From the NCBI GenBank assembly GCA_963769025.1, contig CAVYKI010000002.1, positions 128,001 through 192,000 of the forward strand: 64,000 nucleotides of DNA, in the 5' to 3' direction. The position numbers and the translations under genes are program-made. This DNA comes from an uncultured Verrucomicrobiae bacterium. GTDB taxonomy: Bacteria > Verrucomicrobiota > Verrucomicrobiia > Chthoniobacterales > Chthoniobacteraceae. The notes under the pieces are model-generated. The model saw only the letters and a program-made list of their open reading frames with translations. It searched no databases and was not told the DNA's origin. Positions 41,942 to 52,108 of this stretch are shown piece by piece. Numbering within the stretch: position 1 is the first letter of the stretch; each line of letters opens with the position of its first letter.

Positions 41942-46590
<4,649 letters not shown>

Positions 46591-46616
46591 GGCGCAACAC
46601 CAACTTCGAAACGACC

Positions 46617-48101
46617 ATGGGAAAACCAACAGGCTTCATTGATTTCAGCGCGAGCTTCCCGCCGACCGCGCGCCGCTCGAACGCGTCCGCGACTGGAGCG
46701 AATTCCACCTCCACATGCCCGAGGCCACGCTCCGCACGCAGGGCGCGCGCTGCATGGATTGCGGCATTCCCTTTTGCCACACCGGCACGCTCATCAGCGG
46801 CATGGCGAGCGGGTGCCCGATCAACAATCTCATCCCCGAGTGGAACGACCTCGTCTATCGCGGCCTGTGGAAGGAAGCGCTCGAGCGCCTGCACAAGACG
46901 AACAACTTCCCCGAGTTCACCGGCCGCGTCTGCCCCGCGCCGTGCGAAGGCTCGTGCGTGCTCGGCATCAATGAGCCGCCGGTCACGATCAAGAACATCG
47001 AGGTCGCCATCATCGACCAAGGCTGGGAAGAAGGCTGGGTCGTCGCCGAGCCGCCGGCGAAGCGCACGGGCAAAAAAGTCGCCGTCATCGGCTCCGGTCC
47101 CGCGGGACTTTCCGCCGCCGCGCAGCTCAACAAAGCCGGGCACACCGTCACCGTCTTCGAGCGCGCGGATCGCCCCGGCGGGCTGCTCATGTATGGCATC
47201 CCGAACATGAAGCTCGACAAGGAGCAGGTCGTCCTGCGCCGCATCAAGCTGCTCGAAGCGGAAGGCATCACCTTCGTCTGCAACACCGAGGTCGGCAAAA
47301 ATCTCCCCGCGGAGAAACTCATGGCCGACTTCGACGCCGTGGTCCTCGCGACCGGCGCGACGAAGCCGCGCGATCTGCCCATCGACGGCCGCCAGCTCAA
47401 GGGCATCCACTTCGCGATGGACTTCCTCACCGCGAACACGAAGTCGATTTTGGACAGGCACAAGAACGGCAACTTCATCGACGCCGACCGGCAAGGACGT
47501 CATCGTCATCGGCGGCGGCGACACCGGCACCGACTGCGTCGGCACCTCCATGCGCCACGGCTGCGCGAGCCTCGTGCAGGTCGAGATTTTGCCAAAGCCG
47601 CCGATGGAGCGCGCGAAGGACAACCCGTGGCCCGAGTGGCCGAAGGTCTACAAGCTCGACTACGGCCAGGAGGAAGCCGCCGCGAAATTCGGCGACGACC
47701 CGCGCGTCTATCTCACCACCGCGACGAAATTCGAGGGCGACGCCGACGGCCACGTGAAGGCCGTCCACACCGTGCAGGTCGAGTGGACAAAGAACGACAA
47801 GGGCCAGTTCATCCCGAAGAACGTCCCCGGCACCGAGAAAGTCCTGCCCGCGCAGCTCGTGCTGCTCGCGATGGGATTCCTCGGACCCGAGCAGCCGCTC
47901 CTCGAAGCCCTCGGCGTCGAGCGCGACCCGCGCAGCAATGTGAAGGCCGACTACGGCAAATACGGCACCAGCATCCCGAAGGTCTTCGCCGCCGGCGACT
48001 GCCGCCGCGGCCAGAGCCTCGTCGTCTGGGCCTTCAATGAAGGCCGCGGCGCCGCCCGCGAGTGCGACCGCTTCCTCATGGGCGCGACGGATCTGCCGTA
48101 A
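46617..48101 (+). CDS. gltD: Glutamate synthase small subunit (frameshifts near 46645 and 47487)
   Basis: [56 protein letters not shown]. Confidence 0.96.
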
Positions 48102-48224
48102 AGGCGGGGCGGGGGAGGAATCCTGGAGCACGGCGGTGATGATGGAACCCGGCGCTGCCGTCGGGTGGTCGGTCTGCGCCAAGGCAATTAGCTGGCCGGA
48201 AAATAACTGCTCTTGGCAGCCATC

Positions 48225-48476
48225 AAACGGGAGCCGCAAGCCACAACACGAAAGACGGCAGCCACAAAACAATAGGCGGCAGACCAAGAACAAAAGGCGT
48301 CACCCATGGAACGAAAGGCGCCAGCCCGGGAACGGAAAGCGCCAGCCGCAAAACGAAAGACGCAAGCCTTGGAACGGAAGGCGCAAGCGACAAAACGGAA
48401 GGCGCAAGTCGTAAAACGGAAGGCGCAAGCGGCAAAACGGAAGCCGCCAGCGATTGAACGGAAGTCGCCAGCCCAA
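48225..48476. repeat. Degenerate 21-bp tandem array, 12 copies
   Basis: Units start at 48225, 48246 ... 48456 with no indels; consensus RAACGRAAGNCGCMAGCSNNN; decayed extra unit at 48204. Confidence 0.93.
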
Positions 48477-48631
48477 AAACCTGCCAAAAAGGGCCTCTTT
48501 TCCGCATTCGCCGCCGCTCCCTCCCGCACGGCAGCCACATACCCCTCATCCAACGACACGGCATGATTATTCTTCTCCACTAACTTTAGTATTGACGGCC
48601 CCCCGAGCAAATTGCCTTTCTCCCCGGCGCG

Positions 48632-49565
48632 ATGAGCAGAGTTATCCGCTGGGGTGATGGCACCCGATTCGGAGATCCCAATGCATATTGGGGCTCTCCC
48701 TCATATGTCCTCCAGCCCGGCGACCCCGGCTTCGTCGCACCGAACCTCACCAGCCTCCTCCTCACCATGAGCGACACCCGCAAGTTCCGTTTCGCCCTCT
48801 CCACACTGCTCCACGCCGCCGACAGCCTCAGCGACGCCATCGGCGACACCGACTACGCCACCGCCATGGTCGCGCGCCTCGACGACCCGGGCGAGACCCC
48901 GCCCTACATCTTCCGCACCGTCTTCGAGACGGCCATCGCCGATGTGCGCGCCGAGGTGCAAAAGCAGGGCGGCAAGACCGGCGATGCCGGCGACCTCACT
49001 TCGGATCAAAAGGCCGCCTTCGCCGAAGTCGAGCGCCTCGCCGCCGCCGCGCGCCGCAGTGCGCGCCTCGCCTTCCCCGGCGACGGCGTGAAGCTGCGCA
49101 GCGAATTCCAGGTCGGCATCGACGAACCGCAGGACCTGGCCTCCGTGCTCGAACGCGCGGGCAAGACCCTCGCCGCCGCGCGCAAATACGCCGCCGAATT
49201 GAAAAAGGAAGGCTGGCGCGCCGCCGACGCCGACGCGCTCGAAGCCGCCCTCGCAGCCCTCGGCGAAGTCGCGCAGGATCAGGACGAAGCCCTCGCCGAC
49301 CGCGCCCAATTCACCGCCGCCCTCACCCGCAAGGCCAACCTCGTCTTCAAGCTCTGCCAGCGAATCCAAAACGCCGCCCGCCTGGAATACCCCTCCACCA
49401 AGCCCAACACCGAAGCCGCCCGCCTCCGCTTCCTCCTCGAAACCTTCCCCCCGCGCGACCGCAACCAGCCCGACGGCGGCACGCAATCAGCCCGACGGCG
49501 GCACGCAGACCGACCCGGTGAATCCTGCGAACCCGCCCACTCCGGCGCCGTCCGACTCCGCCTAA
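48632..49565 (+). CDS. Hypothetical all-helical protein with W/G/P-rich leader (core start 48767) and Pro-rich tail; probable +1 frameshift near 49485
   Basis: Strong C-ending codon bias 48767-49480; after a 22-bp duplication the +1 frame reads QPDGGTQTDPVNPANPPTPAPSDSA to TAA 49563-49565. Confidence 0.72.
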
Positions 49566-49702
49566 CGGTGCGCGACGAAGAATCTGGCATCTCCGCAAGA
49601 CCTCACAAGCTCCCGCAACCCCTTGCCCCTTATCCGACAGCAATGCAACCAGCCACTGCCCTTACCAGCTCATTTTCCCACACACGATCCACACTGTACG
49701 CT

Positions 49703-50164
49703 ATGAACAAAATCCAAATCACAATTATTGCAGCTCTCATCATCACCTCCGCTGAAAACCACGCTCAATCGGCGAGCGACCGAGCAGCTACAGCGCAAAT
49801 GCACATCAATGCGCTGACCCACGGAATCAATGGAGATAAGATCGTTGCCCAGTCACTTGAAAGGTCGATCCAGCAAACCAACGCGCAGATTCAGCAACTT
49901 CAAAAGCAAAAGGCCGCCCGGCCCAAGACCGTTTCAGACGAAATGATACAAATGCAGGAAGCGGCGCTTGCTAAAGCCACCACACAATTAGACGCTGTGA
50001 ATACCAGAATTTCAGAAAAGGAAAAGTCAAAGCTGCACTACGAACAGGATCTTCGCACAGCGCAGAACACGATGGCACGGGAAAAGAAAAAAGAGCCCGG
50101 CTCAGCCGACGTGCCGCTGGACGAGGCGCTCAAAAGAAAAAAAGGATATCAAAGTGACAAATGA
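49703..50164 (+). CDS. Secreted coiled-coil hypothetical protein (AT-richer)
   Basis: Signal-like MNKIQITIIAALIITS, Gln/Lys-rich heptads; tail of the 510-aa ORF call. Confidence 0.7.
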   Translation: MNKIQITIIAALIITSAENHAQSASDRAATAQMHINALTHGINGDKIVAQSLERSIQQTNAQIQQLQKQKAARPKTVSDEMIQMQEAALAKATTQLDAVNTRISEKEKSKLHYEQDLRTAQNTMAREKKKEPGSADVPLDEALKRKKGYQSDK

Positions 50165-50208
50165 GGGTGACACGCACAATCCCATTCAAAACTAGCTTTT
50201 TACAAACG

Positions 50209-50718
50209 ATGAAACTCTTACTTATATTGCTGTGTATTATTTCGGCCACCCCGCTTTCTCTTGACGCGGCGGATCCCTCTAAGGAAGAAACAATCACGTG
50301 GCTGAAACGGAAATTGACAAAACTTCAAACGGTGTATGAGGTAGGCCCGACATTTGTATCAACCACAATTGAAGAGTTCAGCGTTAATAAGGGCGTGATG
50401 ACCCTAGCCATCAAGAAAACCCAAATAGTGGAATCGTCTGAGGTAGTCAGCGAACAGCGGTACAGCGTCGCATTGAGTGAACTATCCACTAAGGTCCGGG
50501 TTGACACTTGGGAGGTAAACTCTACCCCTCGGTGTTATATGATCGGAATGGAGGTCACAAAAGGAGACGGTGTATCATGGCTCGTCGTTCGCACCGGCAA
50601 AACGGCAAAACTCAAGGGAATGAACATTGTAGTTTCAGATGAAGAGTTGGCAAAGAGGGTCGTTAAGGCGCTTTCAAGCCTCATTAGAGCCTTCGGGGGA
50701 GCCGACGAACCGTTTTGA
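50209..50718 (+). CDS. Secreted hypothetical protein (AT-richer)
   Basis: Signal peptide MKLLLILLCII...; PSKEETITWLK..L start; RVVKALSSLI..FGG..EPF end. Confidence 0.75.
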   Translation: MKLLLILLCIISATPLSLDAADPSKEETITWLKRKLTKLQTVYEVGPTFVSTTIEEFSVNKGVMTLAIKKTQIVESSEVVSEQRYSVALSELSTKVRVDTWEVNSTPRCYMIGMEVTKGDGVSWLVVRTGKTAKLKGMNIVVSDEELAKRVVKALSSLIRAFGGADEPF

Positions 50719-50894
50719 ACCCCTGCGCCTAACGGAGCGAGGGACGGACTGATTATCCTGGAAGACACTCATGCTATGGCTCATTCGGCGCTGCCAGCGA
50801 CGCGCCTCGCGGCGGGTGCGTGATTCGTGTCGCTTTATACCGAGTTGTTCGGAATATATGGCCCAGGCGATTCACAGGCATGGGGCGCTGTCGG

Positions 50895-50942
50895 AGGAAC
50901 AAGGGACAGACTGATTATAGGAACAAGGGACAGACTGATTAT
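50895..50942. repeat. Exact 24-bp tandem duplication, with partial third copy at 50740-50756
   Basis: AGGAACAAGGGACAGACTGATTAT x2; AGGGACGGACTGATTAT upstream. Confidence 0.9.
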
Positions 50943-51163
50943 TTGCTGCAACGATTTCCAGATCATGGCGCAGAAGAACAGCCCGAAGCCCTATGAGGCG
51001 TTCGTGGGAGTGCCCTCCTCCGCGCAATGGGAGGAGCCACAGATGGAGTTCCTGCGCAATGCGACGCCGGTGTGGCCGGTGATGCGCGGGTAGCAGAACG
51101 GGAGACGAGCGGTGTCCGACAGTCGCACCGCATCCAGGATGCCCACCAGGAGTTGGGCGCCCT

Positions 51164-51718
51164 CTAGGTGTCTTTCCCTCGGGTGGGACGGGACTGCCCG
51201 TGCCCGTCGCTTTGCGCTACTTTCTCGTATTCTCGAACGCGCCGGAGGACGTCGGGAGGGAGCGGCTCGTGGGTAATCTGGGACTTCGTCAAGGCCAGCA
51301 GGTCGTTGGCGAGGGTGTCGGTGTCTGAGAGGAGGCCCCGCCATTTGGCGCGCTCGGGCATCATCACATGGGGAAGATATTGGCGTGCGAGATCGAGGAG
51401 GGCGAAGCAGAGCTGCATCGTCTTGGGCGTGGCGTCGGGGTCGCGCTTGAAGAGGAGTGGGTTGTCCGAGAAGCTCTCCATAAGGTCGAAAAGATGGTTG
51501 AGCATGTGCCGGGCGATCGAATCTGCCTCCTTCTTGAGGCGGGTCTGTTCGCGGCGCCGGTCGGCGGATTTCATGGTGGCCTTCGCCTTTGCAAAATCCT
51601 CCAGGTCGCATGCGATCATCGCGAGGCCGCGCGTAGGATCGGCCCGCAGCCAACGACTGAATTCCTCGCGTGTGGGATTATCGGGGTCGGCAAAGTTGTC
51701 GCTGGAAAAGGGTTTCAT
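51164..51718 (-). CDS. Hypothetical helical protein
   Basis: 184-aa ATG ORF with protein-like composition; family not recognised. Confidence 0.6.
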   Translation of the reverse strand: MKPFSSDNFADPDNPTREEFSRWLRADPTRGLAMIACDLEDFAKAKATMKSADRRREQTRLKKEADSIARHMLNHLFDLMESFSDNPLLFKRDPDATPKTMQLCFALLDLARQYLPHVMMPERAKWRGLLSDTDTLANDLLALTKSQITHEPLPPDVLRRVREYEKVAQSDGHGQSRPTRGKDT

Positions 51719-52108
51719 GCGGCAGGGAGTGGCAGGTGGGTTCGAGAAGAGAGGTTCTTTTTCCTTGGTTCGAGTCCGAAAGTGCGCGTGACGATGTGAT
51801 CCGATTTTCGGCAGTCAACGGCAAGCCCCTCACTGCGCATGGGAAACCGGGCTTTGCCGGCTGAGAAAGAAGGGAGTGCCCACGCTGGCGAAGGCACATG
51901 CGATCACCCGCAAGGACTGGGTGGACGCCCCTCACGAGCGGAAGGCGGGAAAAAAACGCTGCCGCGCGCCCCGTAGGCTGGAGGCATTGCGATGAGAGGA
52001 TTGCGACAAGCTGGGCGCGTGCGATCTCTGGGGAGGGATGGCTGCCGGCTGTGCCGCGCTTTTCGCTCGTCAATGTGGACTCGTTCCGTGTTGTGATCGT
52101 CCTCACAC

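Follow-up and report, generated by a model that had tools for sequence, protein, structure and literature searches.

Introduction

A tandem array of 21-bp units standing directly ahead of a gene for an uncharacterised helical protein raises the question of what the array does and whether array and gene belong together. The locus lies in a 64,000-nt stretch of DNA from an uncultured Verrucomicrobiae bacterium (the window, belonging to a genome of 5.3 Mb whose assembly is indel-rich and of 83% completeness), in which the array occupies positions 48225–48480 and the gene follows on the same, plus strand at 48632–49565. From comparison of sequences across relatives, we conclude that the array is non-coding and forms with the following gene a conserved, self-contained two-part module; the two look like one unit that has so far gone undescribed. 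Tentatively, as the most likely of the readings considered, we propose that the protein of the module recognises the phased sites of the array beside its own promoter.

Results

Architecture of the repeat array

The array of 12 phased units was characterised by Tandem Repeats Finder (TRF), by comparison of its units, by an independent contig and by BLAST. TRF reported a period of 21 bp, and likewise of 42 and 63 bp, across 48239–48480, with 0% indels in four of its six overlapping rows and 5% and 3% in the remaining two. Cut in the phase chosen by a first-pass annotation of this DNA, the region 48225–48476 yields 12 units, all distinct, with the consensus aAACGgAAGgCGccAGCc..a, in which the core AAACGGAAGGCGCAAGC is followed by 3–4 variable bases. 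Mean pairwise identity of the 12 units is 0.688 compared to 0.311 in 1000 shuffles (standard deviation 0.012, maximum 0.354), and it amounts to only 0.29–0.32 if the same stretch is cut at periods of 18–20 or 22–24 bp. The annotation's claim of 12 non-identical, indel-free units in phase is thereby confirmed. Regularity is highest at 48309–48476, and units far from the gene are degenerate. The array shows a lag-14 signal of 0.54 versus 0.76 at lag 21 and no dominant 7-bp sub-period, its units are not palindromic, and BLAST finds it once in its own genome. Since an independent 229-nt contig assembled from a public DNA run matches 48293–48521 with zero differences, the array is not an artefact of the indel-rich assembly. 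An array of clustered regularly interspaced short palindromic repeats (CRISPR), which the annotation had already set aside, is rejected here as well: the units abut head to tail, only 3–4 bases vary, spacers and cas genes are missing and no neighbouring genes are conserved. Between array and gene lies a spacer (48481–48631, plus strand), inside which relatives become similar at the DNA level from about 48590 onwards, their blastn matches starting at 48590–48639.

Array and gene occur together across relatives

It had been predicted in the first-pass annotation that homologues of the downstream protein would neighbour 21-bp arrays of the same period and different sequence. The first four homologous loci found in relatives all carried a 21-bp array directly upstream (4/4), its unit differing each time. 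The homologous loci comprise 18 from genomes and 18 from metagenomes, plus two from a sample of 400 genomes of the phylum, and all that carry a title belong to Verrucomicrobiota or the Planctomycetes–Verrucomicrobia–Chlamydiae (PVC) group. A locus was considered eligible if it matched at least 70% of the family model and had 350 nt or more of sequence upstream, and positive if lag-21 identity reached at least 0.55 in an 84-nt segment no more than 700 nt upstream. One sequence was seen repeatedly in several cases (L014/L031/L032; L028–L030; L106 = L112; L107 = L119; L109 = L111).

For the family of the window protein (alignment A2), an array was detected at 18 of the 23 eligible loci, in comparison to 0/23 at lag 20, 0/23 at lag 22, 0/20 in the 700 nt downstream and 0/23 in the gene body. 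L008 and L037 are clear negatives, L010 (0.49), L015 (0.52) and L025 (0.548) are borderline, and the truncated gene copies L028–L030 lack an array. Weak profile matches in genomes G009 and G022, also with arrays, define a sister family (alignment A4), homologous to A2 according to hhalign (Prob 95.2%, E 2.7e-8, 146 columns). Here 14 of 17 eligible loci were positive with all controls at 0, and the family includes a further gene of the window's own genome, C6:100878–101642, which has its own array. Both families taken together, arrays are found at 32/40 eligible loci, with controls of 0/40 for lag 20, 0/40 for lag 22, 0/33 for the downstream 700 nt and 0/40 for gene bodies, in agreement with the prediction.

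At nine loci with 6-kb flanks, the lag-21 maximum of the whole 12.7 kb fell within the upstream 700 nt in seven. The arrays end 30–340 bp before the start codon (29–150 nt before the ATG in the sister family), and two complete genomes of 5.1–5.2 Mb from another family (G205 and G421) both carry about 17 units. Pairing is also seen among true members of the PQLLE family (NCBIfam NF052641), where three of five loci have arrays (L140, 0.83; L141, 0.77; L144, 0.57–0.61), L142 has none and L143 is ambiguous. Some genomes hold several copies of the sister family: as many as 6 matches were counted in G007, and G016 and G028 each gave 5. Cores within a genome are paralogue-specific, the six modules of G028 displaying five unit consensi and G205 having at least three. 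Many sister-family genes (such as L111, L119, L113, L114, L118) lie within 6–600 nt of contig ends in metagenome-assembled genomes (MAGs) from short reads. Assemblies apparently break at the modules, and their copy number is probably under-counted.

Conservation of core and phase, and the question of coding

L104 and L105 represent two species of one genus, and their arrays align gap-free. Resolved by phase, array identity is 0.87–1.00 at five core positions (AAGGA) and 0.13–0.62 elsewhere. The corresponding genes are identical to 0.84, 0.87 and 0.56 at codon positions 1, 2 and 3, and 11 of the 21 array phases, at 0.44 or less, lie below the third-position value of 0.56. Among eight pairs from the sister family, the five that are moderately diverged show the same pattern, with cores (e.g. 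CGAAG) at 0.8–1.0 and inter-core positions at 0.1–0.5; the other three, with a mean array identity of 0.80–0.87, are too similar for a contrast between core and inter-core. Gap columns in the eight pair alignments number 0, 0, 0, 16, 20, 21, 26 and 42, and in several pairs the gaps suggest that whole units were gained or lost. The substitution pattern indicates that selection acts on the core and on the 21-nt phase.

Because 21 nt correspond to seven codons, such a phase could also arise from translation, the array encoding either a short protein of heptad repeats (rich in Lys/Arg/Ala and resembling histone H1 in the window) or a repetitive N-terminal extension of the gene, whose own extension indeed consists of coding heptads. 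A stop-free sense frame runs across 17 of 20 arrays, and those of L004, L014 and L105 are open in the frame of the gene. In the window, an 86-residue open reading frame (ORF; 48306–48566, plus strand) begins with ATG, reads the array as xKRKAQA heptads and matches no Pfam family. However, the antisense strand is open almost as often (13/20 arrays), each sense frame of the wider array of the window contains one stop, and in L015 all six frames contain at least two. The Lys/Arg/Ala frame from 48306 and a TAG in this frame at 48273–48275 (plus strand), within the well-formed unit 3, are both present in the sequence as the first-pass annotation had described them. Open frames of L038 (+1), L017 (+0) and L020 (+0 and +2) have no ATG, GTG or TTG before or within the array, the open frame of related arrays shifts against the conserved DNA motif and their start codons are not conserved, and the heptads of one lineage bear no relation to those of another (KRKAQAx, KQNRAAx, SAAAKLA, IGSAQPI). 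Furthermore, a conserved contiguous block of 5–6 nt, with most other positions at or below synonymous identity, is the opposite of a codon pattern. Array boundaries for these frame counts, and for the skew counts given below, were set by eye. We consider a coding array highly improbable, and the 86-residue ORF is probably not a gene. Frames, starts and substitution pattern favour a role as nucleic acid over a histone-H1-like coding repeat, which is also what had been suggested earlier.

The downstream gene and its protein

The gene (alignments A1/A2) starts at a conserved ATG at 48632, and the start at 48767 assumed previously is not borne out. Its product consists of an N-terminal extension, an all-alpha core, a FPPRDRNQPDGGTQ motif and a proline-rich tail. 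The first 45 residues, including three Trp heptads, are common to G014 and part of the family; the heptads (IRWGDGT/RFGDPNA/YWGSPSY, 48644–48706, plus strand) are coding and belong to an extension found in some family members only. At L013:5816–6070 the array abuts a remnant of this extension, of which only ...SPSYVLQPGD is left, which shows that loss of the extension beside an array is possible. Towards the C-terminus, the family consensus ends in ...FPPRDRSQPDGGTQ, followed by the proline-rich tail. In the window this tail and the 3' end at 49565 are reachable only via a frame shifted by a 22-bp tandem duplication (49460–49507, plus strand; 2.2 copies according to TRF) ahead of the tail. The shifted frame reads PDGGTQTDPVNPANPPTPAPSDSA* and agrees with the family consensus. 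As a relative's contig from a public DNA run lacks the 22 bases at 49466, the duplication reflects a recent frameshift or else a fault of the assembly.

The AlphaFold model of the window protein is all-helical, with a predicted local distance difference test (pLDDT) of 89.5 and a predicted template modelling score (pTM) of 0.65. Fold searches with Foldseek against PDB, VIA wide and BFVD returned generic helical bundles only (best VIA Z 7.6), with nothing at E ≤ 0.001 in Foldseek PDB; neither a ribbon-helix-helix nor a winged-helix fold is among the matches listed. A Pfam scan gave no family at E ≤ 1 except IcmW at 0.15, PHROGs and PADLOC assigned no family, and a defence role is unsupported, PADLOC giving none. 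Relatives in viral contigs were searched for and none was found. Near-length relatives number 67 in 90% clusters, and a profile search of the family reaches 350 clusters at E ≤ 0.001. The family has a median isoelectric point of 5.5, and many of its Arg positions are nearly invariant. A C-terminal fibronectin-III match occurs in 7 of 18 longer or distant members (E ≤ 0.01), one of them above Pfam's cut-off.

The sole named relative of the protein is the curated PQLLE family, NF052641, for which no function is given and on which the open-access library we searched held no literature under 'PQLLE'. The window protein matches positions 45–197 of its 211 with 19.5 bits (E 6.3e-4), far below the cut-off of 80 bits, and membership is therefore rejected; in a genome search with NF052641 it scored 20.4 bits and its orthologue in G205 34.6 bits. 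The C-terminal motifs differ too, with FPPRDR...Pro-rich in the window family and ...PQ(Q)LE.... in the PQLLE family.

Of the earlier interpretation, the pairing of arrays with homologues, the exclusion of CRISPR and the preference for a nucleic-acid role have stood, as have the proline-rich tail, seen in the family consensus, and the all-helical prediction, seen in the AlphaFold model. Two points on the protein have not. It was described as two similar halves, and BLASTP of residues 1–115 against residues 116–239 gives no alignment at E ≤ 100. It was also compared to DUF6261, and PF19775 is not listed by Pfam at E ≤ 1, the only lead being a feature similarity of 0.89 to a cluster in which 32% of the members carry this domain.

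Genomic setting and mobility

The module occupies the left end of a variable island (48101–52049), which extends from the gltD stop codon to the next gene in common with a sister genome. Similarity to 10 sister-genome loci stops at 48100–48102 and resumes in G003 at 52050, delimiting an island of 3.9 kb, and in G014 the module and gltD are on different contigs. Translated and nucleotide comparison of this locus with those of G014, L007 and L013 leaves as common content only the gene and, weakly, the array, nucleotide similarity starting about 40 nt before the ATG. In an all-against-all comparison of flanking ORFs in both families, only the gene itself is conserved and no other neighbour. The family is patchy: it occurs in 3 of 40 relatives and, at E ≤ 1e-10, in 2 of the 400 genomes sampled from the phylum. 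Its loci sit on contigs as long as 1,089,989 bp as well as in complete 5.1–5.2-Mb chromosomes. Array and gene travel together, at different chromosomal places.

A travelling pair of repeats and presumed binder could be the iteron or centromere of a small, possibly once-mobile replicon, with the array as the site of replication origin or of partition, where the protein would act as initiator or adaptor. Two-turn direct repeats upstream of the gene of the presumed binder do resemble iterons and parC or tubC, and patchiness, different loci, the position in a variable island and the multi-copy state in some genomes are all features that fit such a replicon. However, there is no conserved adjacent gene for Rep, ParA/ParM/TubZ, an integrase or a relaxase, and no Pfam match to Rep or partition families in the window protein and 18 + 4 relatives. 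Moreover, the contigs are of chromosome size (up to 1.09 Mb), the search of viral contigs gave no relative, and copies within a genome are old paralogues instead of identical insertions. This origin of the array is thus, in our view, very unlikely.

Three observations concern the surroundings of family genes. The gltB/gltD-like glutamate synthase genes at 45069–48101 are split over frames (e.g. 46715–48040 and 47550–48101), which is consistent with the many indel errors of the assembly. Further into the variable island, 50895–50942 holds two perfect tandem copies of the 24-bp sequence AGGAACAAGGGACAGACTGATTAT. At L016:1742–2894, in a Chthoniobacteraceae MAG, 7-bp arrays of TTCCGCT with about 22 and about 29 copies lie 1.9–2.9 kb downstream of a family gene.

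Promoter signals and strand bias

By eye, promoter-like elements can be recognised between array and gene. In the window, TTGACG at 48592–48597 in the spacer is a possible −35 element, the clade of the window shares TTGAC(G)-17 nt, L104 and L105 have CATAAT, and in the sister family AATGTAAnAC occurs at this position in all six loci inspected. A consensus promoter scan of 47900–49900 gave 0 sites. Directly after the arrays of L104 and L105, CCTCATAATCAGCG is conserved. The spacer between array and gene (about 1225–1490) measures 266 nt in both of these species, contains fully conserved blocks (e.g. CCTCATAATCAGCG and GCCTCCGCGCTCGCCGATCC) as well as two TTTGCA motifs 42 nt apart, and may be a long structured leader or hold further control sites.

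If transcription started ahead of the array, the latter could act at the RNA level: read out together with the gene or immediately before it, it would be a long, repetitive, G-poor leader or a separate repeat RNA. The cores would then be bound by the module's protein, which could regulate its own translation or package its own RNA, or by some other RNA-binding partner. The sense strand of 18 of 20 A2 arrays has more C than G (pooled skew −0.20), and so have 15 of 17 further arrays, 16 of the 17 also having more A than T; this matches the bias of the genes (−0.26 and +0.33). The cores always point the same way with respect to the gene, the sister-family arrays end close to the ATG at the distances given above, leaders before the ATG are A/C-rich without a Shine-Dalgarno sequence, the sense-strand core of L104 and L105 reads AAGGAG, and two arrays fold worse than shuffles (z +1.9 and +2.2). 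On the other hand, folding is inconsistent, with sense z-scores from −3.4 to +2.2 over 10 arrays, and Rfam offers no match, a scan of 47500–50500 returning only a chance P5 match (E 0.46) inside gltD. The promoter-like elements recognised by eye sit between array and gene, and the exact period of 21 in every lineage has a ready explanation in two turns of duplex DNA and none in unstructured RNA. Judged on these sequence features, a role as RNA appears rather unlikely.

Discussion

Proposed mechanism

We return to the proposal that the protein of the module reads the phased sites of the array. Each 21-bp unit combines a short conserved core with a free-running spacer, and the cores therefore recur exactly every two helical turns, on one face of the DNA. 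The core block, ending 30–340 bp before the start codon, adjoins the likely promoter of the gene. The product of the module, acidic, Arg-studded, all-helical and part of a superfamily that includes PQLLE, would bind the cores cooperatively, and the resulting protein–DNA filament would control its own promoter and possibly mark the locus. In this mechanism we infer the binder to be the neighbouring protein, the target to be double-stranded DNA and the effect to be autoregulation. A single host factor for all arrays is judged unlikely, since the cores differ between modules within one genome and one common factor fits this poorly. The module's own protein would thus be the only module-specific candidate reader, although by eye several arrays of the window's own genome share a CGGAA-like core.

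Several observations weigh against recognition by this protein. It has no recognisable DNA-binding fold and its family is mildly acidic, and the fibronectin-III end of some relatives would be more at home in a surface or structural protein than in a regulator. The C>G and A>T bias of the arrays, being like that of the gene, fits transcription of the array equally well as DNA sites. Full-length genes without an array exist (L008, L037, L130, L142), and the relatives are non-independent samples. Finally, 21-bp arrays can be found outside the superfamily too, in places without a detected family gene. The own genome of the window has 19 regions with lag-21 identity of at least 0.6, of which two are coding heptads and about nine are further non-coding arrays, several of them beside unrelated genes. 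In G006 (L079, G006:C733) and G022 (L080, G022:C32), a gene for an IS200-like Y1 transposase (Pfam Y1_Tnp, E 1.3e-8) is preceded, at a distance of about 300 nt, by a TGCAGC-type array, and in G009 a 21-bp array lies upstream of an SLT gene.

These further arrays could mean that the module is one case of a generic repeat class, i.e. of 21-bp (and 42-bp) intergenic minisatellites that are common in these Verrucomicrobia and accumulate ahead of accessory genes, their link to this protein family being one of descent and of a shared style of promoter or leader without any recognition. The 19 regions at lag 21 compare to 1–10 for seven other lags, arrays stand beside unrelated genes including those for Y1_Tnp and SLT in sister genomes, and many arrays show a 42-bp super-period, as is typical of unequal crossing-over. 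In contrast to what such a class would predict, the array is present at about 80% of family loci versus about ten non-coding arrays in the whole 5.3-Mb genome, the pairing spans three diverged protein families and several orders, and array and gene move together. In addition, cores and phase are kept between species as spacers randomise, which is not expected of neutral minisatellites. We therefore regard a generic repeat class as an unlikely explanation of the module.

The Y1_Tnp-adjacent arrays may link to the biology of repetitive extragenic palindromic (REP) elements and their associated tyrosine transposases (RAYT). For the module itself, REP elements or bacterial interspersed mosaic elements (BIME) with RAYT are rejected, because there is no per-unit hairpin (fold z −3.4 to +2.2 on the sense strand) and the own genome has no array-flanked Y1 gene; its one weak Y1 match (36% over 110 residues) has no array nearby. 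Phased GCAGC arrays are common in sister genomes, and a reversed control of this pattern also matched many genomes, which shows only that varied 21-bp arrays are abundant. In the own genome, the arrays at C9:1126598–1127131 and C13:22022–22498 consist of about 25 near-identical units.

Trp heptads similar to those of the window gene are encoded by other array-adjacent genes of this genome. A comparison by hhalign of A2 with three of its four other Trp-heptad genes (those on C6, C10 and C2, the fourth being on C13) was uninformative (Prob 0.4–16%); of the four, only the gene on C6 is linked to the family, through alignment A4. A collagen-repeat gene starting with MPY(D/N)P(S/A)LP is present in seven copies in the own genome (G000), e.g. 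at L043:596–1234 (minus strand) and L044:2330–2932 (plus strand). In at least four places the gene ahead of it has Trp heptads at its N-terminus, and one of these heptad genes ends in fibronectin III; several of them have a 21- or 22-bp array upstream.

Relation to known systems

Tandem direct repeats just upstream of the operon of their binder are known from parC–ParR of R1, tubC–TubR of pBtoxis and the omega heptads of pSM19035. In these systems the repeats are bound cooperatively on one face of the helix, serve at the same time to control the promoter and vary in sequence between family members. The repeats are 6–12 bp long, the binders are of the ribbon-helix-helix or winged-helix type and, to our knowledge, the gene of a motor nucleoside triphosphatase (NTPase) is always adjacent. 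The present arrays differ in having 21-bp units in 7–17 copies, and the protein is a helical bundle of about 250 residues without fold match, conserved partner or plasmid setting, its loci being chromosomal. No motor NTPase (ParM, TubZ, ParA) is conserved beside the module in the all-against-all comparison of flanking ORFs.

Plasmid iterons, bound by Rep initiators, are repeats of 17–22 bp at about two-turn spacing. The module is like them in unit length, phasing, gene-adjacent position and lineage-specific sequences, its phased arrays lying 30–340 bp upstream of the gene at 32/40 loci, and is unlike them in that it has no Rep-type domain and no replicon context and that its arrays are longer and more degenerate.

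A chromosomal precedent for phased sites at a promoter is the Bordetella ptx promoter, where, according to the portions of the study consulted, six dimers of BvgA~P are spaced by 22 bp and abut the −35 element (PMC7250471). Many weak phased sites there fill the region upstream of the core promoter, and whole-unit deletions keep the phase, as described in the same portions (PMC7250471). BvgA, as portrayed there, is an unlinked global response regulator acting on 6 sites with inverted half-sites, in contrast to the direct repeats of up to 17 units found here, which are specific to the gene copy. Sites of phased activators of the BvgA or LytTR type are 21–22 bp apart from centre to centre and reach the core promoter; the 21-bp spacing of the module agrees with this, its promoter position was recognised by eye and the consensus scan returned 0 sites. 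The module appears to belong to none of these systems, as it has no conserved motor, Rep or response-regulator partner, no matching fold, a chromosomal multi-copy setting and longer arrays. The open-access library, the only one searched, held no paper on the pairing of array and gene and nothing relevant on 21-bp repeats of Verrucomicrobia, on iteron phasing or on collagen-like genes with tandem repeats.

Conclusions

A wider and more speculative reading, which we consider doubtful, is that Verrucomicrobiota maintain address-and-reader modules. Each would consist of 7–17 sites with a private code of 5–7 nt at a strict 21-nt pitch and of a cognate PQLLE-like protein polymerising there, and genomes would keep up to seven orthogonal pairs (G028, G007). 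If this were true, the complexes could serve as chromosomal landmarks or as tethers via the proline-rich tail or the fibronectin-III end, and the modules would contain a new nucleic-acid-recognition fold with a readable and evolvable code. If the target were RNA, the protein could coat its own repeat-bearing transcript.

Should the protein not read the array, the arrays would still be an unusually clear case of selection on helical phase in non-coding bacterial DNA. Should it do so, a new DNA- or RNA-binding fold would come together with natural orthogonal pairs of protein and site that follow a simple repeat code. A superfamily of 350 clusters (E ≤ 0.001) without assigned function gains a testable partner in the co-varying phased array, and, if the protein reads it, the module would offer a way into gene control and the organisation of chromosomes in Verrucomicrobia, of whose regulators few have been characterised.

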